From an uncultured Candidatus Micrarchaeota archaeon (GTDB lineage Archaea; Micrarchaeota; Micrarchaeia; Micrarchaeales; Micrarchaeaceae), in NCBI GenBank assembly GCA_963787745.1, contig CAWBEB010000005.1, forward strand, positions 2,260 to 66,259: a stretch of DNA of 64,000 nt. The letters are read 5' to 3'. This document shows, piece by piece, positions 24,347-49,138 of the stretch. A program made the translations under genes and the position numbers. The notes under the pieces are model-generated. The model did no database searches. It was not told where the DNA came from and saw nothing but the letters and a program-made list of their open reading frames with translations. Position 1 is the stretch's first letter; every line of letters starts with the position of its first letter.

Positions 24347-24418
24347 GCCCCTGTAGCTCAGTGGTAGAGCGCTTGCATGGTAAGCAAGAGGCCAAGGGTT
24401 CAATTCCCTTCTGGGGCT
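24347..24418 (+). tRNA. tRNA-Thr (anticodon GGU)
   Basis: Hand-folded cloverleaf. Acceptor GCCCCTG/CTGGGGC has one T-T mismatch at 6:67. D arm GCTC-AGTGGTA-GAGC. Anticodon arm CTTGC-ATGGTAA-GCAAG. T arm AAGGG-TTCAATT-CCCTT. Discriminator T, no encoded CCA. TTTTATAT lies about 30 nt upstream. Confidence 0.85.
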
Positions 24419-24428
24419 TTGATTGGTG

Positions 24429-24466
24429 GTTAGGTAGATGGTTCCTGGTAATTTTATCTACCTAAC
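24429..24466. repeat. Palindromic element 1 (11-bp arms GTTAGGTAGAT / ATCTACCTAAC, 16-nt spacer)
   Basis: The arms at 24429-24439 and 24456-24466 are perfect reverse complements. Confidence 0.8.
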
Positions 24467-24474
24467 TAATTGGC

Positions 24475-24514
24475 AGTTAGGTAGATAGATTTAAATATTT
24501 TCATCTACCTAACT
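24475..24514. repeat. Palindromic element 2 (12-bp arms AGTTAGGTAGAT / ATCTACCTAACT); spacer holds the TATA-like TTTAAATATTTT of the fic promoter
   Basis: The arms at 24475-24486 and 24503-24514 are perfect reverse complements. The element ends 6 nt before the fic ATG. 24473-24488 matches the IS630 left end (47645-47660) at 15 of 16 nt. Confidence 0.8.
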
Positions 24515-24519
24515 CATTT

Positions 24520-25461
24520 ATGACGCTCGTAATAAAGAAGGTCAAAGGAAAAAGTTATTACTACTCCTTTCTAAGCTATTTTTTGGTCGACAAGTCAAGA
24601 AGCTTCAGTAAATATATCGGGGCTAAGAAACCTGCAGGAAAGGAATTTACTAAAATTGAAAACCGCTTTAAAGAAGAGATTATTAAACGGCTTTCTGGCA
24701 AATCTTATGCTGCAGAATCGATTGAAAAAGGAGAGATCGTAAGGACCTTACTGTTTCGGGATTTATTCGTCCAAAAATATAAAAAAATGACAGAATTAAA
24801 GAAGCGCAAATATGATATTGATAGTACTGTTTTGTTTACCCTCACAACGCTTACAACCGAGGAAGTTGAGGTAAGCTTAGATGACGTCAAGAACGCATTT
24901 GAAAAAGAATCCTCTTTTACGCAAAGGGAAAGGATAAGCAAAAATATGCTCAATGCTGTAGAATCGATTCGAGCGCCCTATCTTCTTGACAAAAATTACC
25001 TGCTTGAGCTACACAGGATGACAATGGCAAGCTTCGAGACCAAAAATCCTGGGCAATTTAGAGATAAGCAGGTATACCTGCATAAAATCGCTGCGGACAA
25101 TCCGATGGGCATAGAACTTAGTTATCGTCCTCCAAGCCCCGATAAGATAAGCGGGCTGATTGATCAATTTATTGACTGGTACAGGAGCAGCACGCTCAAT
25201 CCGATAGAAAAGGCCGCAATGGCGCATTACAAACTATATAGGATCCATCCGTTCCTTGATGGAAATAAAAGAATTTGTAGGTTGATATTCAACAAAACCT
25301 TACTTGATGGGGGTTTCCCGCTATTAAATGTCTCTGTTGAAAAGGAGAATTATTTTGAGGCGCTCATAGAATCAGTAGAGAAGGACCATGTTAAATTTCT
25401 TGTAGAATTTGTCTTAAAACAGTATTATAAGCAGGTCAAAGAGTTCCTCGCCTATAAATAA
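24520..25461 (+). CDS. Fic/DOC family protein (variant motif HPFLDGNKRICR)
   Basis: The Fic core HPFxxGNxRxxR lies at 25246-25281, with Lys replacing the second Gly of the canonical GNGR. The gene is AT-rich. Confidence 0.85.
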   Translation: MTLVIKKVKGKSYYYSFLSYFLVDKSRSFSKYIGAKKPAGKEFTKIENRFKEEIIKRLSGKSYAAESIEKGEIVRTLLFRDLFVQKYKKMTELKKRKYDIDSTVLFTLTTLTTEEVEVSLDDVKNAFEKESSFTQRERISKNMLNAVESIRAPYLLDKNYLLELHRMTMASFETKNPGQFRDKQVYLHKIAADNPMGIELSYRPPSPDKISGLIDQFIDWYRSSTLNPIEKAAMAHYKLYRIHPFLDGNKRICRLIFNKTLLDGGFPLLNVSVEKENYFEALIESVEKDHVKFLVEFVLKQYYKQVKEFLAYK

Positions 25462-25518
25462 TGAAAGGTTTTGTATCGCGTTTGGGGATTGAACAGAGTA
25501 AATAGAAACCTTCTGGGG

Positions 25519-26274
25519 CTATTTTTGAGCAGCATTAGGAACCTGGTAGTTGGGCGAACCTTTGGGAACCAGGCCCAACTCCTTCCATCTCCTGCAAACC
25601 AGGGATCTTGAGACCTTAAGCTTCTTTCTGGCCTGTTCCGAGTCAAGCCCCTTCTCGAATGCCTCGGCAAGCTGTTGGTCAGTCACTCTCTTTTTCATTC
25701 CGGGGGCGACCAAGTCGAGGAATTTCCATCCCCTTGAGATGGTAGACGGGTCAACACCTAGCTTTGCGGCCGCTTCTACGCTGGAAAGCTTTTTTGCATG
25801 CGCGCCTATGAGCTGTTCGTCAGTCACCTTCACCCGCCTGTCTTTCTTAGGCTCGAGATCCAGCTTCTTCCAGCGGGATAGGACGGTCGACGGCCTTACC
25901 AGGAGGCGAACCGCGGCTTCGCCTGTGGAAAGCCTGCTTTTGTGTGCGAGTTTGAACTGTTCGTCAGGCAGCCTCTTTTTTCCGCTGGCCGACCTCCCGT
26001 TGTACAAATGCGGCTCCAGGTTCAGCTTCCTCTGCCGTTTTACCACAGTGTCTGGATGGAGGTCCAGTTTTGCGGCTGCCACAAGCGGGTGGAGGCGCTG
26101 CCTGTGGACCTCCACGAAGTTTTCGTCCGAAAGAACCCTGACCGGCGGCGGGCTTTGCTCGCGCCTCAGGGTCTTCTCGATTGGTTTCGGCACTTTGAAG
26201 AATAGCAGGGCCTCCGGAGTCAGGGTGTCCTGGCGAAGGGTAATCCTAGCGGTTCTTGTTTGGGTTGATATCAT
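25519..26274 (-). CDS. DNA-binding protein with four tandem ~45-aa helix-turn-helix repeats
   Basis: Repeat units: LHPLVAAAKLDLHPDTVVKRQRKLNLEP / LSTGEAAVRLLVRPSTVLSRWKKLDLEP / LSSVEAAAKLGVDPSTISRGWKFLDLVAP / LDSEQARKKLKVSRSLVCRRWKELGLVP. Confidence 0.6.
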   Translation of the reverse strand: MISTQTRTARITLRQDTLTPEALLFFKVPKPIEKTLRREQSPPPVRVLSDENFVEVHRQRLHPLVAAAKLDLHPDTVVKRQRKLNLEPHLYNGRSASGKKRLPDEQFKLAHKSRLSTGEAAVRLLVRPSTVLSRWKKLDLEPKKDRRVKVTDEQLIGAHAKKLSSVEAAAKLGVDPSTISRGWKFLDLVAPGMKKRVTDQQLAEAFEKGLDSEQARKKLKVSRSLVCRRWKELGLVPKGSPNYQVPNAAQK

Positions 26275-26370
26275 TTAGATGCCTTCTGCTGGTTGATTAA
26301 ACTTCAATATATCAAGTTCGGATGGTCTTTAAACCCTACCCTAAATCGGGATTAATGGAAGTGCGACGGG

Positions 26371-26934
26371 CTATCTTTTTGAATTGAGGAGGTAGCCGCC
26401 GAATAGCAGCGCCCAGAGGAATACGGGATAGGCGATCATGCGCTCCATCCCGCCGTGGCCCAGGCCGAGCGTGGTGTGGAAGCCCACGGCAATAACAAAT
26501 GCGAGCAGGGTTATACCTCCGAGTACCGCCGCGATATACCTTATCGGCCCCTTCATCATCCTGGCGCTGTTGATGGCCGTTATCCCCCCACCCACAAAGG
26601 CGAAGGCGGCGAAGGTGTAGTGGAATATGCCGGTCGTTTCAGGGCAGGCGCCAACGCCGAACGCTGCTATGCCCACTATCGCAACGAGAATCGACATGGA
26701 ACGAAACTTGAGCGTCTTCCAGCTCAGCATCACCGCGAGCACCAGAAGCGCGCCGAGAAGCATTATGGAGGCGTTGAATATCGGAGCGGTCGAACCGACG
26801 CCGAGGTCGCTTATGTAGTTGGTGGAGACGCTATAGTGCGGGTAGAGTATCTCGGCCAGTATCATGAACATCATGAACTGCACCATCCCCGCCGCTACGA
26901 GGAAGCCAGCAATCCTGTTGCCGCCAACTTTCAT
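26371..26934 (-). CDS. DUF998-like integral membrane protein
   Basis: About six TM helices with YPHYSVSTNYISDLG after TM1, as in the DUF998 family. Confidence 0.55.
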   Translation of the reverse strand: MKVGGNRIAGFLVAAGMVQFMMFMILAEILYPHYSVSTNYISDLGVGSTAPIFNASIMLLGALLVLAVMLSWKTLKFRSMSILVAIVGIAAFGVGACPETTGIFHYTFAAFAFVGGGITAINSARMMKGPIRYIAAVLGGITLLAFVIAVGFHTTLGLGHGGMERMIAYPVFLWALLFGGYLLNSKR

Positions 26935-27019
26935 GGAACTACATCGATGGCAACCTTTTTAAAGTGGGGGCTGCAGGGCAGATTTAAGTATCTGAACCGG
27001 CTGACCAATATCCGATATT

Positions 27020-27829
27020 ATGAACAAGCTCGCCGAGAGGATAGCCGTACCGACTACCGGAAAGACCATAATTGAGGCGCGGGACCAGGTCATGGCCCTC
27101 AATGCGATGGGGGTTGCGGTCATCGAGCTGAGGCTCGATGCGATAAGGAACCTTTCATCCCAGAACATGGGCGAGCTGCTAGTGCCCCACAGGGGATCCA
27201 GTCTGCTGGTAACCAATAGGCGCATGGAGGAGGCATTCCCAGACAGGGCCACCTTCGGCTTCAAGAACGGGTTCGAAGGGGACAGGATATTCTACCTCAG
27301 GCGCTTTAGCTACCTTGCAGAGATGGTTGACGTCGAGATGGGGGCCTATTTCCCGATATCCAAGTTTGCGATGGCAAAGGCTGTCGGGTCGGCGCACTTT
27401 CCCCTAATGCCATCTGACGAAAAGCTATGGCAGGCATACAGGGAGGCGGCCGCCAAGGAGGAGGTAAAGATGGTGAAGATATGTCCCACGTCCCAAAGCT
27501 GGGAGGACAGCAGGAGGTTCCTTCGTTTCACGGATTCTGTCGTTAAAGAGGGCGGCAAGCCCATAATAGCCCCTGCGATGAGCCCCGCGCAGCAGGTGGG
27601 GGGCGAACGGCAAGGCAGCTACGGAGAGATTGTCAGGGTGCTTACGCTATTTTACGGGGGCTACCTTACTTTCGCGAGGATGGGGCAGGGATCTGCGCCG
27701 GGGCAGATATCCTATGAGGAGATGCCGCGGCTCATGGCGAACGTCGAGGGGGTGGGGCTCCCGGACCTGGAAAGGATCGACGGTGAAGGCCTCCGCCAGT
27801 ACGCGGGAAAGATAGGGCTCAGGGGCTAG
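27020..27829 (+). CDS. aroD: 3-Dehydroquinate dehydratase, type I-like
   Basis: VIELRLD near the N-terminus. SAHF (catalytic His position), VKMVKIC (Schiff-base Lys position) and SAPGQISYEE parallel the enterobacterial AroD blocks NHDF, IPKIA and SAPGQIS. Confidence 0.7.
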   Translation: MNKLAERIAVPTTGKTIIEARDQVMALNAMGVAVIELRLDAIRNLSSQNMGELLVPHRGSSLLVTNRRMEEAFPDRATFGFKNGFEGDRIFYLRRFSYLAEMVDVEMGAYFPISKFAMAKAVGSAHFPLMPSDEKLWQAYREAAAKEEVKMVKICPTSQSWEDSRRFLRFTDSVVKEGGKPIIAPAMSPAQQVGGERQGSYGEIVRVLTLFYGGYLTFARMGQGSAPGQISYEEMPRLMANVEGVGLPDLERIDGEGLRQYAGKIGLRG

Positions 27830-27870
27830 AGTTCGCAACGTTTTTATTCCTGCGCATACCAGCCTAAATC

Positions 27871-28167
27871 ATGAGGACTTGCAGATCAATACTAGGATCC
27901 GTAGCGGGAGGCGTAGTTATAACGCTGATTACGGGGTTATACAGCAACGGCCTTATCGGAGCCACGAGGTTCGGATTTCCGATTTATTGGCTGGTCAGGA
28001 GAGTTCTGGCGCCCCAGTACAACCCATGGCACATATACGTTATCGGCCTGGTAGTCGACATTGTAATCTGGACGCTTATCATAGAGATAATCTATCTCGC
28101 AGGCAGGGTCCTAAAGAAGGGCGACTCCAAACCGCGGGCGAAGCAGAAGGCTAGAAGGAGACGCTGA
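27871..28167 (+). CDS. Small membrane protein with basic C-terminal tail
   Basis: 98 aa with two or three hydrophobic helices and the tail KKGDSKPRAKQKARRRR. Confidence 0.45.
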   Translation: MRTCRSILGSVAGGVVITLITGLYSNGLIGATRFGFPIYWLVRRVLAPQYNPWHIYVIGLVVDIVIWTLIIEIIYLAGRVLKKGDSKPRAKQKARRRR

Positions 28168-28740
28168 TTAGTCTCTGACTGTCTTCCCTCCTCCGGCGAG
28201 GTCGACAACCCTGCTGGGCCTGTTATTCAGCGGGCCCGCATCGATTATGTAGTCCACGGATCTCGCTATTGAGGGTTCTATCTCATCGATTGAGGCCATG
28301 TGTGGCTTGCCGCTGAGGTTGACCGAGGTCGTGACGAACGGGATTGCGGCGCGGGCAATTACCTTGGCGAACCAGTTGTCGGGTATCCTGACGCCAATGG
28401 TGCCGAGTCCCCCGTTTACCTCGGTTGAAATTGCCCCGCTCTTTGATAGCTTGAGGATGAATGTGTAGGGCCCGGGGAGCTTCTCCAGCCATTCCTTCGC
28501 CTTTGGATTGACAATGCAGTTGCGGTTTATCCATTCGCGGGAGGGTGCAACGACCGAGAAGGGCTTGGAGTCCCTCTGCTTCATCGCCCGGATCCTTTTC
28601 ACAGAGGCGCCCCGGGTCGCATCGCATCCGATCCCATATATGGTGTCGGTGGGGTAGACGAAGATCTTGCCTGCCCTTATCTCTTTTAGCATCTCCTGGA
28701 TTCTGGACTCGATGCCGGCCCGGTCCAGGATCTCGCTCAT
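28168..28740 (-). CDS. tsaC: L-threonylcarbamoyladenylate synthase, YrdC/Sua5 family (short form)
   Basis: IFVYPTDTIYGIGCDA...KQRDSKPFSVVAP...PGPYTFIL...GVRIPD...TSVNLSGKP. Confidence 0.85.
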   Translation of the reverse strand: MSEILDRAGIESRIQEMLKEIRAGKIFVYPTDTIYGIGCDATRGASVKRIRAMKQRDSKPFSVVAPSREWINRNCIVNPKAKEWLEKLPGPYTFILKLSKSGAISTEVNGGLGTIGVRIPDNWFAKVIARAAIPFVTTSVNLSGKPHMASIDEIEPSIARSVDYIIDAGPLNNRPSRVVDLAGGGKTVRD

Positions 28741-29453
28741 ATCAGGTTCACCAGGAACCCGACGATGAATCCCATGAATATGCCTACGTATACCAGCTTC
28801 TGCTTCATGTTGTCAACATCCCTGACCTGGTGCCTTATCATCGGTATTATCACGTAGAGGATCGCGCCCACCGCAAGGCCGTCGAATATGATGTTGAACA
28901 GGGTCGAGCTGAAGAAGAAGCCTATGGTTCCGCCAAGTATGGTCGGTATTCCACCCACCAGGAAGAGCGCCGGGATCATCCACTTCCTCTTGTCCTTCTT
29001 GCCCACCATCGGGGCGGCTATAGGGAAACCCTCTGTTATGTTCTGCAGTATGAAGCCGACTAGTATCACCAGCGCTATCCCGGAGAACAGGCCCAATGTT
29101 TTGGCGGCTGACCCAAACACCAACCCCTCGGTAAGGTTCTGTAGGCCTATCCCTATCGCGATCATGAGCGACATCTTAGTCGGGGTAAGGCCGGTCTTTG
29201 AGCCGTTCTCGAAGACGTAGAGCATGAAGAAGCCGATCGCAAGGGAGCCTGCGAAGACGATGCTAAGGAACGGGTCTGCCCCATACCCGGCGAGGGAGCC
29301 GCTCGCATAGAGATGCGGGGCGACATCGGAGAAGATGTCGGCCAGCAGGAATATGAGTATGCCTATGGCCGCCGAGTTCAGGAACCTGGTGACCCGCTCG
29401 CTGGTCTTGCGCCTCAGGACAATGGGCAGGGATATGAATATAGACAGGCCCAT
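28737..29453 (-). CDS. ZIP family divalent-metal transporter
   Basis: Multi-TM protein with GLQNLTEGLVFG and ILQNITEGFPIAAP, the ZupT-like metal-binding helices. It overlaps tsaC by 4 nt (ATGA). Confidence 0.8.
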   Translation of the reverse strand: MGLSIFISLPIVLRRKTSERVTRFLNSAAIGILIFLLADIFSDVAPHLYASGSLAGYGADPFLSIVFAGSLAIGFFMLYVFENGSKTGLTPTKMSLMIAIGIGLQNLTEGLVFGSAAKTLGLFSGIALVILVGFILQNITEGFPIAAPMVGKKDKRKWMIPALFLVGGIPTILGGTIGFFFSSTLFNIIFDGLAVGAILYVIIPMIRHQVRDVDNMKQKLVYVGIFMGFIVGFLVNLI

Positions 29454-29631
29454 TATCAGGGAGAAAAGTATGACGGCAAACAGGTTAGCTATTGGAACAC
29501 CGGACTTTGATTTAGATGCATCTTGTCCCAGAATATTTAAAAGGGTATGCGGGTGGGCGGGATAGGCCCCTCCCTTTTTGCGCGAGGCCGGTCCGCCACT
29601 TATTTATATTTCAAGCGGGCCATAGAGGGTT

Positions 29632-30201
29632 ATGATTACTGCTCGGACATCCGGGGAGGGTGCAGTGAAGCACTTCGGGCCTGTGCATTTGCTTAGGCAG
29701 CCCCGCCTTTCCGATTACATAGAATTGCGTTTGCCAAACAAATCGGACTATGACAGGGTCTTCGAATTCAAAAACGCCCTCCATGGGGAAGGCCTCACAT
29801 TCTTCGGTTCTAGCCAGAGGTTCGGTGCCGAAAAATGGGTTGACTGGGCGGTAGATGCATCTGCAGAAAGGAAGGCCGCGATATCGGTTGCCTCGATCGG
29901 TAACAGAATCGCCGGAGTATCAGAAGTAACCCAGCAGTACTATGGAGAGGGTATTCTTGTAATGGCGGTCGCTCAATGGGCGAGGAGGCAGGGAGTCGGG
30001 GATGCGCTGATGAGCGACGTTCTCCAGAAAAGCCGCAACCTGTTCCCAAGGGTTCTGTTATACGTCAACTTCTCTAACGACGCTGCGCAGGCGCTTTACC
30101 ACAAACACGGATTTAGGCAGTGCATAGGCGATGATGGACCATACCTGAAGATGGAACTTGTTCTTCCTTCAGGGACAACTTCGAAAGCAACTAATCCTTA
30201 A
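29632..30201 (+). CDS. GNAT family N-acetyltransferase
   Basis: VAQWARRQGVGDALMSDVL...NDAAQALYHKHGFRQ. TTATTTATATTT lies about 25 nt upstream of the ATG. Confidence 0.7.
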   Translation: MITARTSGEGAVKHFGPVHLLRQPRLSDYIELRLPNKSDYDRVFEFKNALHGEGLTFFGSSQRFGAEKWVDWAVDASAERKAAISVASIGNRIAGVSEVTQQYYGEGILVMAVAQWARRQGVGDALMSDVLQKSRNLFPRVLLYVNFSNDAAQALYHKHGFRQCIGDDGPYLKMELVLPSGTTSKATNP

Positions 30202-30222
30202 ATAATCATCCTCCCAAACAGC

Positions 30223-30603
30223 TTGGTGGATGAAGTGAAGCTGAACAAGTTGACAAAGGAAGAGGAGGACGTGATAGTGCACAAGGGCACCGAGATGCCT
30301 TTTAGCGGTGAGTACGAGCACAACATTGCGGAAGGCACATATGTCTGCAGGAGGTGCGGCGCAGTGCTTTATAGGTCAAAGGACAAGTTCGACGCAAGGT
30401 GCGGTTGGCCCTCCTTCGACGATGAGGTCAAGGGCGCGGTCAAGAAGATCCCTGACGCAGATGGACAGAGGACGGAGATCCAATGCGCAAGGTGCGGAGC
30501 CCATCTCGGTCACGTCTTTGAGGGGGAGGGGTTCACGCCCAAGAACGTGAGGCACTGCGTTAACTCGATATCCTTAAAGTTCATTCCCGCGGACAAGAAG
30601 TGA
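30223..30603 (+). CDS. msrB: Peptide-methionine (R)-S-oxide reductase
   Basis: [24 protein letters not shown]...[12 protein letters not shown]...RHCVNS has two CxxC zinc motifs and the catalytic RxCxN. The start codon (TTG 30223 or GTG 30226) is uncertain. Confidence 0.9.
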
Positions 30604-30607
30604 GCCC

Positions 30608-31171
30608 ATGGCAAAGGAGCACGAGATAGACATACTTGAGATAAACAAGCCTGAGGCGGCGAGGAGGCTAAGGAAGCTGGGCGCCACTTACAGGGGCCAC
30701 CTGAGGTATAGGAGAATAGAATTCCTGATAGACGGCAAGGTTGGCGGAGGCCACAGCTGGGCGAGGGTAAGGACCGACGGCAAGGAAACCACCATAACTG
30801 TTAAGCGCTTCAGGGGGAAGCACCTGCCCATGGACGAGCACGAGATTTCCACGGGGAACTTTGAGGACGCCGTAAGGCTGATGAGCAGGCTGACAAGATC
30901 CAAGATCTTCTACTTCGAGAACGAGAGGGACGTATACGAGTTGGGCGGGGCGACCATAACCATAGACAAGTGGCCCCTGATACCTCCGTTCATGGAGATA
31001 GAGGGAAAGTCGATGGCCCAGGTGAAGTCGCTCTACAATAGGCTCGGCATCGGAGGCGAGATGGTTGGCAACGCCACCATGGACAGCATATTCAAGAGGT
31101 ACGGCCTGGACTTCAGGAAGGAGATGTCGAAGAAGCAGGAAAAGCTCACGCGCATACTAGAAAAGGACTAG
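30608..31171 (+). CDS. CYTH-domain protein (class IV adenylate cyclase / triphosphatase-like)
   Basis: KEHEIDILEI (ExExK-like start), RVRTDGKETTITVKR, ITIDKWPLIPPFMEIEG. Confidence 0.65.
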   Translation: MAKEHEIDILEINKPEAARRLRKLGATYRGHLRYRRIEFLIDGKVGGGHSWARVRTDGKETTITVKRFRGKHLPMDEHEISTGNFEDAVRLMSRLTRSKIFYFENERDVYELGGATITIDKWPLIPPFMEIEGKSMAQVKSLYNRLGIGGEMVGNATMDSIFKRYGLDFRKEMSKKQEKLTRILEKD

Positions 31172-32294: not shown

Positions 32295-32398
32295 ATTGCT
32301 TTCGTCGACCCCCCATCCAGTAAGACCCGAACGACCCGCCATGCTAATCAGAAGGAGTAGGAATATATTAACCCTTTCATCCACAATATCGGTTGAAT

Positions 32399-32484
32399 GC
32401 AGGGATAGCAAAGCTTGGCCAAATGCGCTAGATTCAGGGTCTAGTCCCTTAGCGGGTTCGAGAGTTCAAATCTCTCTCCCTGCA
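32399..32484 (+). tRNA. tRNA-Leu (anticodon CAG), long variable arm
   Basis: Acceptor GCAGGGA/TCCCTGC. Anticodon arm CTAGA-TTCAGGG-TCTAG. T arm GAGAG-TTCAAAT-CTCTC. Discriminator A, no CCA. AATATATTA lies about 30 nt upstream. Confidence 0.85.
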
Positions 32485-32684
32485 TTTCAAAATTACGAAG
32501 ACAAAAATCAAAGTTAAAACAGAGTTTAATTTTAAGGGGGATTGCCTTTGGACATAGACAGGGATAAACTATCCCCCTTTCTTATTCTGATTCGTTCAGG
32601 GATTTTTGGCAGCAACGGTTTCGTATCTGAAAATTAAACGGGAAGCCTTAAATAAGTGCAGAACGATAAACATATTGTGATTGG

Positions 32685-32924
32685 ATGCAAAGACAGAGCC
32701 AGATACAGAAAGACGAGAAAACCATCGAGTCTAAACTTGATGAAATAATAAAACGCATTGATGCATTGACTCATATAGTTGAAGAAGAGATCTATCCTCC
32801 CGAAAACCAATTTAAGGCCAGTTACCTAAAAAAAGAGGCAAAGCTTGACAATAAAATAAAGTCCGCGAAGAATAAACTGCGTGCTTTTAGAAACTTTGCA
32901 GAACTAGACCGTTCTATAAGCTAA
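32685..32924 (+). CDS. Putative antitoxin (assigned by position upstream of the RelE-like toxin)
   Basis: 79-aa helical, charged ORF that ends just upstream of the toxin gene. No family recognised. Confidence 0.4.
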   Translation: MQRQSQIQKDEKTIESKLDEIIKRIDALTHIVEEEIYPPENQFKASYLKKEAKLDNKIKSAKNKLRAFRNFAELDRSIS

Positions 32925-32935
32925 GCGTGCATGGA

Positions 32936-33199
32936 ATGGCTTATTCCATTTCGCCCACAAACGAATTTGAAGAATCCTTAGCTAGTATAAAGAAAAGTGA
33001 TAGAGCGCTTTACAATAGATTAGGAAAGAAGATCGATGAACTGCGCATAGAACCGCATTTTAGGAAGCCCCTAAGCAACGCACTTAAAGGCTCGTTTAGG
33101 GTCCACATTGGCCATTTTGTGTTAAGGTACAGGATAGATGAAGGTGCCAAAACCATTATTCTGGTATCTTTCACGCATCATGATGAAGCCTACCGATAG
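32936..33199 (+). CDS. relE: RelE/ParE-family type II toxin
   Basis: IKKSDRALYNRLGKKIDELRIEPHFRKPLSNALKGSFRVHIGHFVLRYRIDEGAKTIILVSFTHHDEAY fits the RelE/ParE consensus (L.g.l.g..r.r.G.yR..Y.i......i....hR..aY). Confidence 0.75.
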   Translation: MAYSISPTNEFEESLASIKKSDRALYNRLGKKIDELRIEPHFRKPLSNALKGSFRVHIGHFVLRYRIDEGAKTIILVSFTHHDEAYR

Positions 33200-33277
33200 A
33201 AACTTGGATGTTAATTGGGTTAGAGTGATTCCACGAGGAAGGTAACAATAAGAGTTGCAGAAAACGAGCTTTTAGCT

Positions 33278-33490: not shown

Positions 33491-33534
33491 AATCGCCAAA
33501 CCTTACCCCAAGCTCAAATCTCTCTCCCTGCATC

Positions 33535-33545
33535 TATTTATATTT
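33535..33545 (+). promoter_or_regulatory. TATA-like box
   Basis: TATTTATATTT lies immediately after the direct repeat and about 28 nt upstream of ATG 33573. Confidence 0.4.
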
Positions 33546-41463: not shown

Positions 41464-41524
41464 CTCCGCTTTAGCAGAGCTAGAAGCTATTTATACGGTT
41501 AAAACATAAGGCTAGTGGATCATC

Positions 41525-42172: not shown

Positions 42173-42185
42173 TCCGATGCTGGGG

Positions 42186-42665: not shown

Positions 42666-43800
42666 CCCTCACGCCCTTCCGGTTCTTCCTGTCAGTGATC
42701 ATCTCCTCCTTGTGCCTGGTCGCCTGCTTCTTGAGGCGGTTCATCAGCTCCCTGAAGGCGTCATGGAAGGACTCGCCATCGGAGTGCACCCGAACCATCC
42801 CGTTCTTTCCAAGGGACAGCCTTGCCTGCATCTCGTAGGACTTGAGGTTGACACCCTTCACCCGCATGGCGAGGTACTCGACGTCCAGCTTGTGCATCTG
42901 CTCTATGTAGTGCATGAAGGATTTGAGCTCCTCCCTCACCGATTCCTCGTACTGGAAGCTGTATTCGTCGAAGCCAGTCAGGAAGACCTTCTTCTCCTCC
43001 ACCTTGCGCCTCGCGACGACGTTCTCTAGTATGTCCGATATCGTAAGTATGCCGATTGGGTTCCTGCCCTTTATGACCACAAGCGAGAATGCGCCTGCCC
43101 CTATCATCTCGCGCGCTGCATCAGCGAGGGTCTCGCCGGGCTCTATGGTCCGAACGTTGGTGTCCATGATGCCGTCGACCCTAGAGTCGGAGGCCTTGGA
43201 GCTTCTCGATTTGAGCTCCGGGAGCCTGTCACCGGCGGAGCCGTAGCTGCTGTGTATCTTCCTCTTTGTTACCATTCCGCTGAACCGGCCCTCGTCGAGG
43301 ACGACCAGCCGGTTGACCTTGTTGCTTGACATGGTGCTAAGCGCCTGGCCTAAGGTCGCCTCGGAGCCTATCGCAAGGACCGGCGAGCTGAGCGCGTCGG
43401 ACACCTTCGCCTCGTCAAGGGCGTGGAGCGAGAGCAGCATCTTCAAAAGCGTGCCCCTCTCTATGACGCCGGTTATCTTGCCGCCCTGGGTGTAGGGCAG
43501 GTTCTTCACCCTGAGCTTGTAGAAGTAGTATGCGAGGTCCTCGACGGAGCTGCTGTCCGAGACCTGCGGGGCCCTGATTGCCAGCTTCCCGATCTTCTCC
43601 GATGCCGGGGCCCTACCGGAGTTCATCCTGTTGAGGATTCTTGAATCAACCAGGCCGTAGTACTCACCGTCCTTCGTCACAATGACAGCAGGTGCGCCCT
43701 TGCGCGCCTCCACCGCCTTTGAGAGAGAGGAGTTGTAATCCACAAACTCAACTTCAGAAACAAGCTCCTTCGGAATCTGTCTTTCCTCTATATCTACCAT
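42655..43800 (-). CDS. Four-CBS-domain protein with C-terminal HPF/RaiA (S30AE)-like domain
   Basis: CBS repeats include AVIVTKDGEYYGLVDSRIL, KITGVIERGTLL, RFSGMVTKRKI and NPIGILTISDIL. The C-terminal ~97 aa (42700-42990) reads FLTGFD...REELKSFMHYIEQ...YLAMRVK...ARLSLGKNGMVRVHSDGESFHDAFRELMNRLKKQATRHKE. Confidence 0.7.
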   Translation of the reverse strand: MVDIEERQIPKELVSEVEFVDYNSSLSKAVEARKGAPAVIVTKDGEYYGLVDSRILNRMNSGRAPASEKIGKLAIRAPQVSDSSSVEDLAYYFYKLRVKNLPYTQGGKITGVIERGTLLKMLLSLHALDEAKVSDALSSPVLAIGSEATLGQALSTMSSNKVNRLVVLDEGRFSGMVTKRKIHSSYGSAGDRLPELKSRSSKASDSRVDGIMDTNVRTIEPGETLADAAREMIGAGAFSLVVIKGRNPIGILTISDILENVVARRKVEEKKVFLTGFDEYSFQYEESVREELKSFMHYIEQMHKLDVEYLAMRVKGVNLKSYEMQARLSLGKNGMVRVHSDGESFHDAFRELMNRLKKQATRHKEEMITDRKNRKGVRDEE

Positions 43801-43822
43801 ATGAACACCACGCAAACTGCGA

Positions 43823-43856
43823 ACCGATTAGATATAAATAACAAAGTATATAAGTA
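43823..43856. promoter_or_regulatory. Bidirectional AT-rich promoter region (TATA-like boxes for the CBS gene and tRNA-Cys)
   Basis: GATATAAATAAC and GTATATAAGTAG lie between ATG 43800 (minus strand) and the tRNA start at 43870. Confidence 0.4.
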
Positions 43857-43869
43857 GTAGTCAAGTAGC

Positions 43870-43940
43870 GCCAGGATGGCAGATCAGCTATGCGTCCGCC
43901 TGCAGAGCGGAAAAGAAGGGTGCAACTCCCTTTCCTGGCT
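43870..43940 (+). tRNA. tRNA-Cys (anticodon GCA)
   Basis: Acceptor GCCAGGA/TCCTGGC. D stem GCA(G)/(A)TGC with a 13:22 G-A mismatch. Anticodon arm TCCGC-CTGCAGA-GCGGA. 4-nt variable loop. T arm AAGGG-TGCAACT-CCCTT. Discriminator U73. No CCA. T6 run just downstream. Confidence 0.8.
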
Positions 43941-43975
43941 AAATTATTTTTTACGGCGACAGATAGACGACAGAA

Positions 43976-44185
43976 TTAGATAATTAAAGAAATCAAATAT
44001 ATGACCAATAAAAGTACTATTGTTATAGCCATAACCTTCGCATAGAGTGGAATCTTGTCGGAGTGTTGTAGTGGTCGCTTTTGGATCTTCTCGGTTCCTA
44101 TAAACTTTCCTTCTTTATCAGTTATCTCGATTTCTTGTACACCAAGGTTTGGAACCGGGCCGCCTACTGGTGGGCTAATGGGCAT
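43976..44185 (-). CDS. Small tail-anchored membrane protein
   Basis: 69 aa with the C-terminal helix VMAITIVLLLVIYLISLII. AT-rich. Confidence 0.35.
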   Translation of the reverse strand: MPISPPVGGPVPNLGVQEIEITDKEGKFIGTEKIQKRPLQHSDKIPLYAKVMAITIVLLLVIYLISLII

Positions 44186-44203
44186 TGTGATACACCTAAT
44201 GAA

Positions 44204-45997
44204 TCAGAACTTGGATATAGATCTGAACCAATTTATTATCTCGCTTATTATCCCCAGAAAGCTTGACTGCTGGACCTGTGGCATAGTCGTGGTAGCCGAG
44301 GTCGTAGCTGGTATGCTGCTGCCCGAGGTTGCTATTGTTGTTGACACCGATGTTGATGCCGCAGTGGTTGGAACAACAGTGGATGAGCTAGGCGCAGTGG
44401 TGCCGGAAGTGCTTGTGTAACCTGAAATTGTGCTTGTTGATGTGGATTGGAGCGCCACGGGGGATGGTACGACAAGCGTTTTATTTCCGTTTGATGCGAC
44501 GACGCTTAGGCAGTAATAGGGAGATGCAGATACGTTGTATACCTGCTTCACATTAGACTGGTACCAGTATGGATCGGTCATTATACTGGACCAGAGCACG
44601 GTCCTAGTCCCTTGCGGGCATGTTGATGAAGTGCTTGAGTAGAACGTTACGTTGTAGGGTGCAATTGCATCTTCCCATGCCCCGTTTAAAAATTCAGTGG
44701 TGCCTGTTTGCCTCACGGCCAGATTTAACCCAACCGTCGGCACCAGTATCGAAGGTGCCGTACCTGGTACTGTTATTACGACGGGCGTTGAATAAATGAT
44801 GCCATTGGGGCTTACTGCCTTCACACACATGTAGGTCGAATGAGGGAATGTTGCGAAGAACTCTATAGATGAAGAATAGGGAGTGTAGCCTCCTGCTCCC
44901 AGTGAAAGATAGGTATATGTATCGCTATTGCATGAGGCTGAAGGCCCAGAAACAATACTGAGGTTATAATTGCTTGCATTCCTGCCCCCTATCCAATACG
45001 CCTCCAGGCTCGTGTAATTTCCGGCTGTTGTAGTCCAGTTTAACCTATGGTTCGAGTGCCCATTGGTGGCTGGGGTTGGTAGTATAAACAGGCCTACGCT
45101 GAATGAAGCATTCTGGGATCCTAATATTGTAGTTGTGGATGTGCTAGAGATGCTCGATGATGAAGTTGATGTGCTTGTAGTTGTAGGTACTGTAGGACTT
45201 GAAGAAGCGTTTACAGGAACTATTTGGGAATAAGTAATATCTCCAACAGAATCCGACACTTTAGCGCAATATTTGTAATTTCCCGCTTGGGTTAGGGGTT
45301 GGAGCGTATAGGTTGCAATAACAGCATAGGAAGCACTTAATGATACATTATAGGTTTTTATAACACTTGCAGAGCAGTTGGTAGATGACCCTGTTTGTAT
45401 GAGGCTTAAATTGTATGGAGCGACCCCTCCAGACCAACTGAATGCGAAGCTCAGTGGATACCCAAGTTGGACATAGTTGGATGTGGTTAGTGCTGGTGCC
45501 GTCAAGGTCCCGGGAGTCCCAATGGGAGCGGTTATAGAAGCAACCCAAGCAGTTATCCACGGATTCTGGGGTGATGGTGCGCCGGGATTTGCAGTATAAT
45601 TAATCCATATATTACCCCCAAAGACAGCGCCTGTCCCCCAGCCTGGTCCCCCTATCGGACCGCTCTGTTCGTAGCACGTTATACCGTGTGCAAATATCGC
45701 TTGTCCGGATTGCAGTGAGCTTTGCTGAAGCGAGGTATATATCACAGTATTTGACGGTGATGAATATGAGGAATTAGATAGAGAAAGGCATGAGATTTTG
45801 GGGTTGTATATTGTGACGCCAGTCCCCTGTATAAGCGTAAAACTCAACGTACCTGATGTAGAAACGCTGAAATTTGTGCATGAGAATGAACCAGGCGCAA
45901 CGCAAGCCCTAGCGGTTGACCCTCCGAAAGCAACAGAACTAGCTCCTATTACAATAAAAATAGAAAGAAGACCAAGAAGTCTTAGATTATAACTCAT
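44204..45997 (-). CDS. Large secreted Ser/Thr-rich, sequon-rich surface protein (islet cargo)
   Basis: N-terminal signal MSYNLRLLGLLSIFIVIGASSVAFG, spaced Cys pairs, two poly-S/T linkers (TTTSTSTSSSSISSTSTTT; STSTSTISGYTSTSGTT...) and many N-x-S/T sequons. Confidence 0.6.
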   Translation of the reverse strand: MSYNLRLLGLLSIFIVIGASSVAFGGSTARACVAPGSFSCTNFSVSTSGTLSFTLIQGTGVTIYNPKISCLSLSNSSYSSPSNTVIYTSLQQSSLQSGQAIFAHGITCYEQSGPIGGPGWGTGAVFGGNIWINYTANPGAPSPQNPWITAWVASITAPIGTPGTLTAPALTTSNYVQLGYPLSFAFSWSGGVAPYNLSLIQTGSSTNCSASVIKTYNVSLSASYAVIATYTLQPLTQAGNYKYCAKVSDSVGDITYSQIVPVNASSSPTVPTTTSTSTSSSSISSTSTTTILGSQNASFSVGLFILPTPATNGHSNHRLNWTTTAGNYTSLEAYWIGGRNASNYNLSIVSGPSASCNSDTYTYLSLGAGGYTPYSSSIEFFATFPHSTYMCVKAVSPNGIIYSTPVVITVPGTAPSILVPTVGLNLAVRQTGTTEFLNGAWEDAIAPYNVTFYSSTSSTCPQGTRTVLWSSIMTDPYWYQSNVKQVYNVSASPYYCLSVVASNGNKTLVVPSPVALQSTSTSTISGYTSTSGTTAPSSSTVVPTTAASTSVSTTIATSGSSIPATTSATTTMPQVQQSSFLGIISEIINWFRSISKF

Positions 45998-46114
45998 TTA
46001 ATGACCCATTTAATATCGGCACTAAACCTTATAAACTATTGCAGAGAAAGGTTTTGCGGTAGATTCTTATGACCCACCCCCAACAGAAGAAGGGGGTGCC
46101 TAGTGGCTATACAG

Positions 46115-46127
46115 CCCTTTCCTGGCT
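46115..46127. repeat. att-like copy 1 of the tRNA-Cys 3' end (CCCTTTCCTGGCT)
   Basis: Exact 13-mer identical to 43928-43940. The upstream AGAAGGGGGTGC also echoes the tRNA T-arm GAAGGGTGC. Confidence 0.8.
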
Positions 46128-46220
46128 TTTTTCGACGGCAAATCGACGACAGAAATGATCGAGCTTTCTGCTCTGACAAGCAAGATATATATAAGTTTAA
46201 TCCCATAAATATTTGATTAT

Positions 46221-46418
46221 ATGTCAGATTTGCGCATTTTCAAGAGCGAAGGGTGGTATGTCGCTGAACTGCCGTCATTACATGTAGTTACCAGAGCAAA
46301 GAATATGCCGTCTCTTGAAAGGAATTTGAAGGAGGCCATAGACGTGGCAGTAGAGGGAATGTTGGCACTAAAATCTATGAAGATAAAAACATCCAGGGTC
46401 ATGGCGGCAAGAGCATGA
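46221..46418 (+). CDS. hicB: HicB-like antitoxin (UPF0150 N-terminal domain only)
   Basis: IFKSEGWYVAELPSLHVVTRAKNMPSLERNLKEAIDVAVEG fits the HicB fold pattern. It sits directly upstream of hicA. Confidence 0.65.
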   Translation: MSDLRIFKSEGWYVAELPSLHVVTRAKNMPSLERNLKEAIDVAVEGMLALKSMKIKTSRVMAARA

Positions 46419-46427
46419 GTGGTAATC

Positions 46428-46646
46428 ATGTCAAGGTTGGTGATAAAACCAGCTAAGCTTCTAAAGATACTTGTGAAATACTACAATTTCAGGCCCATAA
46501 GGCAGAAGGGAAGTCATATATTCCTGACTAATTTTGAGAAGTCTACAACACTGCCGATGCATGGCGGGGATTTGGACCAGGGCACTTTAGGTGCCATATT
46601 AGACCAGGCTGGATTGACAAAGGATGACATCAGAAAGTACCTTTAG
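46428..46646 (+). CDS. hicA: HicA-family mRNA interferase toxin
   Basis: KPAKLLKILVKYYNFRPIRQKGSHIFLTN...TLPMHGGDLDQGTLGAILDQAGL is the YcfA/HicA pattern. Confidence 0.8.
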   Translation: MSRLVIKPAKLLKILVKYYNFRPIRQKGSHIFLTNFEKSTTLPMHGGDLDQGTLGAILDQAGLTKDDIRKYL

Positions 46647-46704
46647 CATCAAAAAAACGTATTAACCGATTATAACGATAAACTATCGGGATTCCCCGAT
46701 ACGT

Positions 46705-46717
46705 CCCTTTCCTGGCT
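46705..46717. repeat. att-like copy 2 of the tRNA-Cys 3' end
   Basis: Exact CCCTTTCCTGGCT. Confidence 0.8.
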
Positions 46718-46756
46718 TATATACCAGAGCTCACCCGCCGGGTTAATGCGCAAAGA

Positions 46757-47134
46757 TTATTCAACAACTATTATTTTCTCTGTCCCCAGCCTTTTGAAAT
46801 CCTTATCCTGAGTCACGAATGTCTCTCCGTTGGAAAGTGCCGTAGATACTATGAGGAGGTCGGCCTCGCTAAGTTTCAGTCCGGATGCCTTTAGTTTTTT
46901 ATACAGTTCGCCGGCCACCCAGGCAGCTGACAGATCCATATTGTATACCCTTACCCTTTCGAACAGAGTTATAAGGAGCTCTTTGTCGGCATCACCTATG
47001 CCCTTCACTAGCTCGTAACCAGTTATGGAAGCTATTCCTATGGCCCCAGAGCCTTGATGCTTATCTATGATGCCGGCAGCTGTTTTTGAGCCATTTAGAT
47101 AGTCTATCATTATGTTGGTGTCAAAGACCGCCAT
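46757..47134 (-). CDS. vapC: PIN-domain toxin VapC
   Basis: MAVFDTNIMIDYL...ITGYEL...DLLIVSTAL...FVTQDKDF carries the PIN acidic residues. Confidence 0.85.
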   Translation of the reverse strand: MAVFDTNIMIDYLNGSKTAAGIIDKHQGSGAIGIASITGYELVKGIGDADKELLITLFERVRVYNMDLSAAWVAGELYKKLKASGLKLSEADLLIVSTALSNGETFVTQDKDFKRLGTEKIIVVE

Positions 47135-47136
47135 AT

Positions 47137-47355
47137 TTATCCCCTTGCGAACATGCCCTTTCTCTCTTCTCTTATCGTTTCCTTTAGGGCCTTTACCTTT
47201 TCGGGGCTCATGTTAAGTGCACCGAACAGATCGCTTATGTCTGTTTTCTTCTTGTCGGTGAGTTCTATTATTATCTTCGTGAAGGACTTGTCCTTGCCCT
47301 TGAGCTTGCTTAACCTGGAATAAGCCTCTTCAGAGACTGCTATTAGTTTGGCCAT
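47137..47355 (-). CDS. vapB: VapB-type antitoxin (archaeal COG1753-like)
   Basis: MAKLIAVSEEAYSRLSKLKGKDKSFTKIIIEL is typical of this antitoxin family. It lies 2 nt upstream of vapC. Confidence 0.7.
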   Translation of the reverse strand: MAKLIAVSEEAYSRLSKLKGKDKSFTKIIIELTDKKKTDISDLFGALNMSPEKVKALKETIREERKGMFARG

Positions 47356-47645
47356 ATAACCACTTGTATATAGGTGTATATTAATATATAAATATCTTGT
47401 GGTTGGGTAGGCTCAGCCTAATTTTGAGCTAAAATTCCCACGGAACAAGCTAAGCGCGTATTCTTTGGATAATCCTGTCAGTGTGACGTTAAATAAAAGG
47501 CACACCATAAAGATCGCCCCAATAGAGCTACAGGTCGCTTATAAGTTATATTTGGGCAGTGAAAAGGATTACATGGACGCGGCACACCTATATGCAGTAT
47601 TCAAGGAAACACTCGACAAAAAAAAGGCTGGATGTCTTCGTTAAG

Positions 47646-48816
47646 CAGTTAGGTATATAGCTAACCCAAAAAGTGTTACAACTTCCACTACTCTGAACTT
47701 TTGATAAAGTTGTTATCCTTTCTCATCGTCTTCCAAGAGACGACAATGTTGGAAAACGACTCCAACATCCTGGGAGAACTGTACAGAAACTGCAAGGATG
47801 GACGGGAGAAGATAAGGTATGAGGCACTTTACGCCGTAAGTAGAGGTCGCAGCGTAAAGGATGTTGCAGACTTCATAGAAGTTGAAGAATCCACAGTCTA
47901 CGATTGGATAAACAAGTGGATTTTCGACAAGAATATCCGTGATAAACCAAGGAGCGGCAGACCTTCGAAAATCACGAAAGAGGACGACAAAGAGATACGC
48001 CGCCTTATCGACGAAAATGACCCAAAGAAGTACGGGATAAATGCATCTTCCTATACAACAAAAGAACTGCAACTGTACTTTGCAGAATACAGAGGCAAAT
48101 TCATCGACGAAGAGACGTTCAGGATTCATCTTGTCGGGACTGGTGCACACTATGTAAAGGCGCAACTTCGATACAAAGAAGGCGACTTGAACAGGCAGAT
48201 CGAATTCGCACAGAATCTCGTGTTTCTCCTGAAGAACGGATTCTTCACAAAGATACTGTTTGTCGACGAAATGTCAGTATCGACATCCGCACGAAATGGA
48301 TACGGATGGACATACAACCAGAGACTTGTCGTTGATGCACCGCAGAATCATGTTGACAGGGCAAACTACTTCGGCGCAGTCGAAGTCACAGAGGGAACGA
48401 TAATTGAAACGGTGAGGAAATCTGCAAAAGCACCGTCATTCTTGCACCTTCTTCACAAGATAGAACAGTATTACCCTGACGACAAAATGCTGATAGTGAT
48501 GGACAACGGTGCGGTTCACCATAGTTGGAGGGTTGGCAAGTTCTTCAACGAAAGAGACAACATGAAACCTCTTTTCCTGCCGCCATACTCTCCTGACCTC
48601 AACCCAGAGGAGTATGTACATAACGTTTTGCGAGATAAACTTCTCAATAACCGCAACTTCAAGAGCACCAAACAGATCGGATTCGTGATCGACCGCTTCG
48701 TCAAACAGATGACGGCAGAGACGGTCAGGAGTATTGCGACATTGATACCAATAGAGGCGCTACTCTCTGCGCAAATCCAGTTGTGAGACTTTCAAGGAAA
48801 GCTATAAAAGATTCTG
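47646..48816 (+). mobile_element. IS630/Tc1-mariner-family insertion sequence (~1.17 kb)
   Basis: Single transposase ORF. Imperfect ~36-bp terminal inverted repeats: 47646-47681 against the reverse complement of 48781-48816, about 23/36 by hand alignment, with both ends starting CAG and sharing TATAGC. No clean TA target duplication was seen. Confidence 0.55.
47746..48786 (+). CDS. IS630-family DDE transposase
   Basis: N-terminal HTH region (GRSVKDVADFIEVEESTVYDWINKW; PRSGRPSKIT). DDE_3 core: LFVDEMSVS, IVMDNGAVHHS, LPPYSPDLNPEEYVHNVLRD. Confidence 0.85.
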   Translation: MLENDSNILGELYRNCKDGREKIRYEALYAVSRGRSVKDVADFIEVEESTVYDWINKWIFDKNIRDKPRSGRPSKITKEDDKEIRRLIDENDPKKYGINASSYTTKELQLYFAEYRGKFIDEETFRIHLVGTGAHYVKAQLRYKEGDLNRQIEFAQNLVFLLKNGFFTKILFVDEMSVSTSARNGYGWTYNQRLVVDAPQNHVDRANYFGAVEVTEGTIIETVRKSAKAPSFLHLLHKIEQYYPDDKMLIVMDNGAVHHSWRVGKFFNERDNMKPLFLPPYSPDLNPEEYVHNVLRDKLLNNRNFKSTKQIGFVIDRFVKQMTAETVRSIATLIPIEALLSAQIQL

Positions 48817-48844
48817 TTGTGAAAGAAATTTTAGGTGAAATTCG

Positions 48845-49108
48845 ATGAGAGCTGACGTTAACCTAATAAAAGCGATTGAAGAGGAAAAGAGGATGAACTT
48901 CAAAAGCAACTTGAAATTCGTACTCTTTTATGGAGACTGGCTAAAGCACACCAGCAATGAAGTATGGTCCCAACAGCAGGCGTTGCTTATAAACTCCCAA
49001 TTGTTGGGTGCAGATCAGGACCGTGCGAGATATTTAACTGTCAAGGCTGCAGGTAAGAGGGCTAGGGCAGCACAAGACATCAGTGCAGTAATGGAGTCTG
49101 ATCTTTAG
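48845..49108 (+). CDS. Hypothetical protein
   Basis: 87-aa ORF between the IS and the last att-like copy. No family recognised. Confidence 0.3.
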   Translation: MRADVNLIKAIEEEKRMNFKSNLKFVLFYGDWLKHTSNEVWSQQQALLINSQLLGADQDRARYLTVKAAGKRARAAQDISAVMESDL

Positions 49109-49114
49109 TTCCAG

Positions 49115-49138
49115 TCCTTTTCTGGGCTTATCCTGGCT
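49115..49138. repeat. Degenerate att-like copy 3 of the tRNA-Cys 3' end
   Basis: GTCCTTTTCTGGGCT followed by TATCCTGGCT. See islet 3. Confidence 0.6.

Follow-up and report, generated by a model that had tools for sequence, protein, structure and literature searches.

What kind of mobile DNA would set toxin genes directly behind tRNA genes, close each insertion with a copy of the tRNA's own 3' end, and carry no recombinase with which to do so? The question is posed by a stretch of 64,000 nucleotides (hereafter the window) from an uncultured Candidatus Micrarchaeota archaeon (GenBank assembly GCA_963787745.1, contig CAWBEB010000005.1, positions 2,260 to 66,259), whose flanking genes assign the organism to the Micrarchaeota, of the DPANN archaea, with the nearest genomes at 76-81% nucleotide identity. 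The window holds exactly three tRNA genes (ARAGORN), all on the + strand, and each is followed by one or more small islets that end in a repeat of the tRNA 3' end. We argue below, with reasonable though far from complete confidence, that these are tandem mini-islands formed by conservative site-specific recombination at the T-loop/3' end of tRNA genes, and that the cassettes of which they consist lack a recombinase and depend on an enzyme supplied in trans. Loci and assemblies of related genomes are referred to by L numbers, and the main units of the window are these (att, attachment site; GC, G+C fraction):

24347-24418, + strand: tRNA-Thr(GGU), by ARAGORN and Rfam (tRNA, 71.4 bits); its last 12 nt (24407-24418) are the proximal att copy
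24419-25520, + strand: Thr islet, 1.1 kb, GC 0.38
32398-32485, + strand: tRNA-Leu(CAG), by ARAGORN; identity block from 32463/32466, in the T-loop
32486-33533, + strand: Leu islet, 1.05 kb
43870-43940, + strand: tRNA-Cys(GCA), by ARAGORN and Rfam; its last 13 nt are att copy 1
43941-46127, + strand: Cys cassette 1, 2.2 kb
46128-46717, + strand: Cys cassette 2, 590 bp, with HicAB
46718-49138, + strand: Cys 'cassette 3', 2.4 kb, composite

At all three tRNAs the block of identity runs from the boundary between the T-loop and the 3' strand of the T-stem through the discriminator base, and att copy 1 of tRNA-Cys comprises the T-stem 3' strand, the acceptor-stem 3' strand and the discriminator base. 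The exact 12-nt Thr repeat CCTTCTGGGGCT occurs in the window only at 24407 and 25509, with two or more matches in none of 100 shuffles; the Leu 20-mer TCAAATCTCTCTCCCTGCAT occurs only at 32466 and 33514 (23 nt if one mismatch is allowed) and its exact repeat was likewise never reproduced by shuffling; the Cys 13-mer CCCTTTCCTGGCT is exact at 43928, 46115 and 46705, a degenerate copy occupies 49115-49128, and TCCTGGCT comes next at 49131-49138. In 1-kb windows GC is 0.42-0.48 over the islets, as against 0.53-0.59 elsewhere; taken as whole stretches, the DNA behind the tRNAs has a GC of 0.38-0.47, compared with 0.55. Searches of the islet open reading frames (ORFs) against Pfam, NCBIfam and PHROGs returned no recombinase domain in any of them. 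The original prediction, made from the letters alone, had described one architecture shared by the three tRNAs, listed the repeat copies including the degenerate one, and noted the lack of an integrase in the islets, and on each of these points the tRNA calls, exact repeats, low GC and domain searches agree with it. As a separate observation, tRNA-Leu falls below the Rfam gathering score in the whole-window scan, despite the ARAGORN call.

Could the repeats be accidents of sequence or of assembly? Two of them are short (12-13 nt), which is the one feature in favour of chance, but neither shuffling nor a broader test agrees with it. The terminal 10-mers of 78 tRNAs were sought in 307 kb of downstream and 407 kb of upstream sequence, with the following outcome:

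Downstream, same strand: 13 matches in 307 kb
Upstream, same strand: 0 in 407 kb
Downstream, reverse complement: 0 in 307 kb
Upstream, reverse complement: 2 in 407 kb

The excess is confined to the downstream same strand (13 against 0), and the earlier claim that the repeats exceed coincidence stands. As to assembly, public read evidence amounts to sparse Logan contigs from soil and peat metagenomes at a depth of 1-4. The right junction of the Cys island is spanned by separate Logan contigs and also by L001, an assembly made independently and 99.96% identical over 9.2 kb, so the architecture is no assembly artefact, and it recurs in many independent metagenome-assembled genomes. Chance or artefact is left with next to no probability.

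That the islets are insertions can be read from relatives that lack them. The tRNA-Cys site of L002 is empty: the counterpart of window position 43940 joins that of 49139, and the tRNA runs into the conserved region upstream of YjbQ, so the right edge of the Cys island is 49138, and all of 43941-49138 is missing there. The RelE islet behind tRNA-Leu is absent from L086 (the closest relative, on the same contig as L082), L002 and L004; in L086 other DNA of normal GC, with a decayed att copy, fills the space between tRNA-Leu and the native flank CCTGCA(T/C)CTATTTATAT. The Cys island and the RelE islet are true insertions, present in some genomes and absent from others; a comparison of strains or metagenome bins for such differences had been proposed as a check. 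Islander-type islands are recognised by an intact tRNA with a displaced 3' fragment, atypical composition and empty sites in relatives (PMC4383910; PMC6563490), and the window shows the intact tRNA, the displaced fragment and the empty site in a relative; it differs in that the integrase gene that defines such islands is missing from the island.

The pattern extends through the phylum. In about 30 Micrarchaeota loci, as little as 12 bp and as much as 6.3 kb separate tRNA-Leu from the NFACT gene, and displaced tRNA-Leu fragments are found in several of them:

L004: 12 nt
L008: 13 nt
L012: 26+ nt
L013: 30 nt
L030: 38 nt exact, about 52 nt with one mismatch
L034: 26 and 31 nt, in two tandem units

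Islands with repeats at tRNA-Cys occur in L087, L090, L033 and L085, and some ten relatives have other integrase-less islands at tRNA-Leu or tRNA-Cys, most of them with toxin-antitoxin (TA) genes. It had been said that the idea would fail if the pattern proved limited to the window and static; limited it is not, given its recurrence in relatives and in the 78-tRNA scan, while the Fic islet at tRNA-Thr has indeed been static between the window and L082. As an observation in its own right, tRNA-Glu of L036 (20560-20660) is followed, inside a span of about 80 nt, by two extra copies of the 5' T-stem strand and T-loop (GGGTTCAAATCC); they repeat the half of the tRNA opposite to that repeated in the window and may represent several att sites in a row, empty or collapsed.

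The array of tRNA-Cys is composed as follows (aa, amino acids; bit scores with their cut-offs in brackets):

43948-43975: left-end motif A, cassette 1
43976-44185, - strand: 69-aa membrane ORF, cassette 1
44204-45997, - strand: 597-aa secreted Ser/Thr-rich surface protein without a family match, cassette 1
46085-46114: tRNA-like stretch, just before att copy 2 (46115-46127)
46127-46154: motif A' with the CGACGACA box, cassette 2
46221-46418: hicB, assigned by position only
46419-46646: hicA, Pfam HicA, E 2.5e-12, 47.2 bits (27)
46654-46704: conserved right arm, followed by att copy 3 at 46705-46717
46718-46738: left-end motif B, 'cassette 3'
46757-47134, - strand: vapC, PIN domain, 55.5 bits (23.6)
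47137-47355, - strand: vapB, VapB, 50.7 bits (27.9)
47465-47644: 3' remnant (the last third) of a gene for a protein of about 200 aa, intact in L087
47656-48806: IS630 element, transposase at 47701-48786, NCBIfam transpos_IS630, 173.9 bits (100)
48845-49108: DUF8150 gene, 'cassette 3'

That such units behave as cassettes is indicated by the comparison of this array with its counterparts. The HicAB cassette at 46182-46721 is 88.5% identical in nucleotides to L090 20745-21283, whereas core genes of the two genomes are 73-76% identical, and in both it is bounded by the end of the genome's own tRNA-Cys, CCCTTTCCTGGCT in the window and TCCCTCTCCTGGCTT in L090. The att core variants follow the host tRNA (CCCTTT in the window, CCCTCT in L090), which places recombination activity after the split of the two species; either the cassette entered after the tRNAs had diverged, or its copies were homogenised by continuing recombination. 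The order of the array is permuted, too, running in the window from the tRNA through the surface-protein unit and HicAB to the VapBC unit, and in L090 from the tRNA through an insertion sequence (IS)/surface-protein unit and HicAB to the native flank; in a third genome (L095/L096) HicAB lies beside the native Cys flank, and there an IS200/605 transposase has taken the place of part of hicB.

Conserved non-coding ends accompany these cassettes. An arm of about 50 nt, AAC...ATAAACTAT-N4-ATTCCC-N13-TCCTGGC, precedes the core at five sites that together represent three cargos and four genomes: it closes HicAB in the window, L090 and L095, it closes the unit before HicAB in L090, and in L085 it closes a Fic cassette inserted at tRNA-Cys. 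On the other side of the core, motif A (a T-run plus CGACG..CAA.TCGACGACAGA) recurs in the window at 43948 and 46127, and in L087 it comes after tRNA-Cys; motif B (TATATACCAGAGCTCACCCGC) stands at position 46718 of the window and, in L090, immediately behind tRNA-Cys. The 50 nt that follow tRNA 3' ends are about 96-fold enriched in the 8-mer CGACGACA, which occurs after tRNA-Leu, tRNA-Cys and tRNA-Glu of different genomes; as the box CGACGACA(A/G) it is placed 11-23 nt beyond the tRNA 3' end or att core at these sites:

Window: 46144 and 43965
L004, L010 and L034: after tRNA-Leu
L087: 16486, after tRNA-Cys
L036: 20572, after tRNA-Glu

A T-arm-like GGGTTCxAAxCC follows the box in L010, L034 and L036, and the box could be either a shared recombinase arm site or a feature of the tRNA trailer. 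Judged by sequence comparison, then, the sharing of HicAB and its arm above the level of core identity, together with the arm on other cargos, supports the view that these small units behave as cassettes, and the original proposal of a family of very small cassettes gains from the occurrence of the HicAB unit in several species.

In the explanation that we prefer, the mobile unit would be a short self-contained cassette, usually a TA operon, that brings its own tRNA 3' segment and conserved arms and encodes no recombinase. The crossover would fall in or beside the T-loop; the P' arm of the element would be the sequence that follows the core on the tRNA side, and its P arm the sequence that precedes each distal core. 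A circular form of the cassette would recombine with the tRNA gene, or with an att copy inside the array, restoring the tRNA and turning the displaced 3' fragment into the distal direct repeat, and repeated events, perhaps continuing today, would stack cassettes such that older ones move outward and decay; in the window, the truncated gene, the IS insertion and the degenerate att copy all belong to the outermost unit. TA cargo would make loss costly and so favour persistence in a genome of about 1 Mb under deletion pressure. The recombinase would act in trans and would probably be a tyrosine recombinase whose gene lies at another place in the genome, on a larger island, or on a plasmid or virus. 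The 590-bp unit contains only hicB and hicA and no recombinase of its own, so that the enzyme would have to act in trans, and mobilisation of this kind is plausible, if unproven.

Several observations weigh against this explanation. The repeats are of uneven length, between 8 and 23 nt; erosion is visible in the outer Cys cassette; the Fic islet stands in L082 at the same site and within one continuous alignment, its 81% nucleotide identity equal to that of the flanks, so that it was in place before the window and L082 split and has stayed there; at least three of the four edges of the segments that vary between the strains L097 and L099 have no att copy; and an integrase with a matching attP is absent from scans of viral contigs and metagenomes and from 1.1 Mb of related loci, where the integrase screen used one seed and a regular expression, which a divergent recombinase may escape.

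Some of these points suit a different history, in which the islets are eroded remnants of autonomous plasmids or proviruses whose integrase was deleted while TA genes were kept for the harm that their loss would do, with nothing mobile today. Decay is plain in the outer Cys unit. The gene remnant at 47465-47644 corresponds to an intact 200-aa gene in L087, and between it and the DUF8150 gene an IS630 element has inserted, complete and with the DDE_3 transposase, terminal inverted repeats and TA target of that family; its 28-nt inverted repeats lie at 47656-47683 and 48779-48806, with TA as the outermost bases (TATAGCT...AGCTATA). Because of this insertion and the gene remnant, 'cassette 3' is a composite, and the original list of Cys cargo, which had named HicAB, VapBC and an adhesin-like protein, overlooked both. 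The degenerate last Cys att copy, the static Fic islet, a small CxxC protein of the Leu islet that is N-terminally shortened relative to its L034 homologue, and displaced fragments that range in relatives from perfect 38-mers down to decayed 12-mers all fit erosion. Against it, the unit shared between species is the 590-bp cassette itself with both its arms, not a piece of something larger; the same end arm stands on three different cargos; none of about 15 independent islands shows an integrase or a fragment of one; the att cores follow each genome's tRNA variant; and near-identical strains (L097/L099) differ in cassette content. Erosion as the whole explanation is accordingly one that we doubt, while giving it a substantial minority of the probability. 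As a further point on the IS630 element, the assembly L001 stops within its right end, which suggests that the element is present in several copies in the genome.

The L097/L099 comparison bears on another alternative. The core DNA of these strains is 99.4% identical, and downstream of tRNA-Thr(UGU), on the reverse strand and within 3-4 kb, both have a 694-bp HicAB block, on either side of which their segments differ: one strain has genes for a peptidase S51, a NUDIX protein and a methyltransferase; its counterpart has a fructosamine-kinase-like gene, a His phosphatase and small ORFs. One edge of the shared block coincides with a decayed tRNA-Thr-like core, and at three or more of the four edges the variable segments meet shared sequence with no att copy. 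Such edges, and flanks conserved in many relatives, are what homologous swapping would leave if the tRNA and the conserved downstream gene served as anchors and the repeats were old scars with no current role. Swapping creates neither direct repeats of tRNA ends nor tandem att arrays, and leaves unexplained both the conserved non-coding arms on differing cargo and the same cassette at different positions in the arrays; it is improbable as a full account, although homologous replacement between conserved anchors probably contributes.

If site-specific recombination is at work, where is its enzyme? No integrase was found in about 15 islands of the window and its relatives. A screen of all ORFs of the window and the related loci (regular expression and phmmer) gave a single XerC-like gene, in an unrelated Nanoarchaeota locus, and clustering of ORFs yielded no recurrent family without a known match beside tRNAs that could be a hidden recombinase. 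Scans of viral contigs gave nothing relevant for the Leu att core, Fic, the 597-aa protein, the 19-mer of the arm or a 22-base gapped pattern of the arm; one scan of metagenome contigs with the arm 19-mer gave four chance matches, all unrelated; and a sequence model of arm plus core recovered, in the 1.1 Mb of loci, only its own five training sites. By eye, no dif/XerA-like 11-6-11 palindrome was seen at the att sites. The trans-acting integrase forecast at the outset has, in these scans, not come to light. 'Ca. Mancarchaeum acidiphilum' Mia14, also of the Micrarchaeota, is reported to have an XerD-family integrase on a 36.5-kb island beside small islands with TA and laminin-G genes (PMC5498576); a recombinase source in the same cell is therefore plausible.

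A bolder version of the preferred explanation may also be entertained, if only tentatively: integron-like cassette exchange that docks at tRNA 3' ends, in the Micrarchaeota and perhaps in DPANN archaea at large, with an unlinked recombinase that would capture and stack cassettes and exchange them between species. It would involve sub-kilobase, promoter-bearing cassettes with a standard end of the roughly 50-nt arm plus the tRNA core and the CGACGACA box at the opposite end, and its enzyme could be encoded by the host or a partner organism and belong to a family not yet recognised.

Known elements of other kinds fit poorly. Small TA-rich cassettes are typical of chromosomal integrons, and integron arrays without an integrase (clusters of attC sites lacking integron-integrases, CALINs) have been reported in Archaea (PMC9668308), yet the boundaries here show no attC-like imperfect palindrome (fold z-scores of -1.6 to +0.5 against shuffles; the sole hairpin is not conserved in L090) and no GTTRRRY, reading ...CCTGGCT|T instead; there is no IntI or attI, no recombinase in the window, and the array begins at a tRNA gene. 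A casposon was rejected, as the cassette ends lack terminal inverted repeats and neither Cas1 nor PolB is present, and so was an SSV-type element, for there are no int(N)/int(C) fragments at the ends and the 590-bp HicAB cassette is too small for one. Together these possibilities are highly improbable.

The cargo of the two remaining islets of the window is as follows:

24422-24515: two 47-nt tandem units, each with the inverted repeat GTTAGGTAGAT...ATCTACCTAAC, operator-like
24520-25461, + strand: Fic gene, 313 aa, E 2.7e-22
25509-25520: distal Thr att copy
32685-32924: 79-aa ORF, putative antitoxin by position only, without a family match
32927-33199: RelE/ParE toxin, ParE_toxin 37 bits (23), NCBIfam RelE_StbE 28.9 bits (27.9)
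33251/33278-33490: small CxxC protein, third gene of the operon, without a family match
33511-33533: distal Leu att copy

The operator-plus-Fic unit of the Thr islet is also found in L082, L083 and L085 (operator units at 5905-5995, 5907-5995 and 5915-5992, respectively), and the islet is absent from L002. All copies of this Fic gene have two inverted-repeat units of 10-11 nt upstream (TTAGGTATAC...GTATACCTAA in L085), an arrangement that resembles an operator for autoregulation. Members from Micrarchaeota, Aenigmarchaeota and Iainarchaeota are 57-83% identical, and the genes of the family remain AT-rich (GC 0.37-0.47) in genomes of GC about 0.53. Directly outside the islet, 25519-26274 (- strand) encodes a fast-evolving 251-aa protein of about four repeated helix-turn-helix modules, 66% identical to its L082 orthologue.

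What had been called a RelE pair in the Leu islet is a three-gene operon; the calls of Fic, RelE, HicAB, VapBC and a surface protein were otherwise correct, and HicAB, VapBC and RelE/ParE each join a toxin domain above cut-off to an adjoining small partner gene, as type II TA modules do. The CxxC protein that ends the operon has a homologue in the Leu islet of L034 (10920-11186), again as third gene, there of a DUF4258/DUF2283 TA operon, such that a conserved ECKxCQK motif ends two unrelated TA operons, both in tRNA-Leu islets. An excisionase or an int(N) fragment was considered for this protein and rejected, given its place at the 3' end of TA operons and an orientation relative to att that is opposite in the window and L034.

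Among relatives, cargo includes AbiEi/AbiEii, HEPN/MNT with an ExoIII-like nuclease, DUF4258/DUF2283, PIN and PadR; an ArsR/MerA-like pair, a class II aminoacyl-tRNA synthetase with acetyltransferases, an amino-acid permease, surface proteins and IS elements also occur there. The notion of cargo that is almost exclusively toxins does not survive this list, with its MerA-like reductase, synthetase, permease and ExoIII-like nuclease, or the surface proteins and IS elements. The 4.5-kb tRNA-Leu island of L012 combines AbiEi/AbiEii with an ArsR-family regulator, a thioredoxin-like protein and the MerA-like pyridine nucleotide-disulphide oxidoreductase, possibly a metal-resistance cargo. In L087 a tRNA-Cys island at 16464-19582, bounded by a 15-nt repeat, holds the full-length synthetase (D/K/N type, 481 aa) with the acetyltransferases, and a second D/K/N-type synthetase lies elsewhere in the locus. 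Aspartyl-tRNA synthetases are reportedly present in DPANN 'proviruses' described in a study of acid mine drainage (AMD) viruses, and these may be islands like that of L087. In two genomes the tRNA-Cys array has, on its outer side, a pair made up of the protein of about 200 aa (without a family match) and DUF8150; their genes overlap in L087 (19628-20405) and are split by IS630 in the window, and the pair may be another two-gene addiction or defence module.

How far are such elements already known? The original prediction could not match them to a described archaeal system, yet there are close analogues in bacteria: cis-mobilisable elements (CIMEs), tRNA islands built by tycheposons, and CALINs. 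CIMEs of Firmicutes, derived from integrative and conjugative elements (ICEs), are att-flanked, devoid of recombination and transfer genes, accrete in tandem at the 3' end of a conserved gene and are expected to obtain an integrase from a related element (PMC5704250). The window islets are likewise att-flanked and without recombination or transfer modules; CIMEs, however, are bacterial, usually several kb or more in size and tied to an identified ICE integrase, whereas the present units, found in a DPANN archaeon, go down to 0.6 kb, have mostly TA cargo and lack a known cognate integrase. The tRNA islands of Prochlorococcus, another streamlined host, contain several partial-tRNA repeats and tandem integrations, with older DNA outward, and are mostly integrase-less (10.1101/2020.12.28.424599). 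Streamlined genomes, tRNA-adjoining islands, partial-tRNA repeats and integrase-less DNA are common to both systems, but tycheposons measure 10-20 kb and have tyrosine or serine recombinases and replication genes, no such master element is seen here, and the conserved arms sit on the small cassettes themselves. CALINs, which can be served in trans (PMC9668308), resemble the present arrays in their small TA-rich cassettes and in end recombination sites common to unrelated cargo, and differ in their anchor, here a tRNA, and in their sites, here tRNA 3' end copies with linear arms rather than folded attC.

On the archaeal side, the smallest integrated element in a survey of Thaumarchaeota was 2.6 kb and still encoded its integrase (PMC6563490). 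The small islands of Mia14 are alike in their TA and laminin-G surface genes, although its report gives no att/tRNA anatomy, cassette structure or cross-genome comparison (PMC5498576). In a review of archaeal tyrosine recombinases, DPANN archaea and non-autonomous elements both go unmentioned. The kind of element is thus known in bacteria, as CIMEs, tycheposon islands and integrase-less integron arrays, and its archaeal form is new.

DPANN archaea have tiny genomes, depend on host cells and have few recognised routes of gene exchange. The conserved arms are a searchable signature, which makes the missing recombinase a testable target. If the explanation preferred here is true, the notion of non-autonomous integrative elements, as embodied by CIMEs and CALINs, would extend from bacteria to archaea, and there would be a concrete mechanism by which DPANN archaea gain and retain TA, defence and cell-surface genes, those likeliest to matter for attachment to the host and for conflict with viruses.

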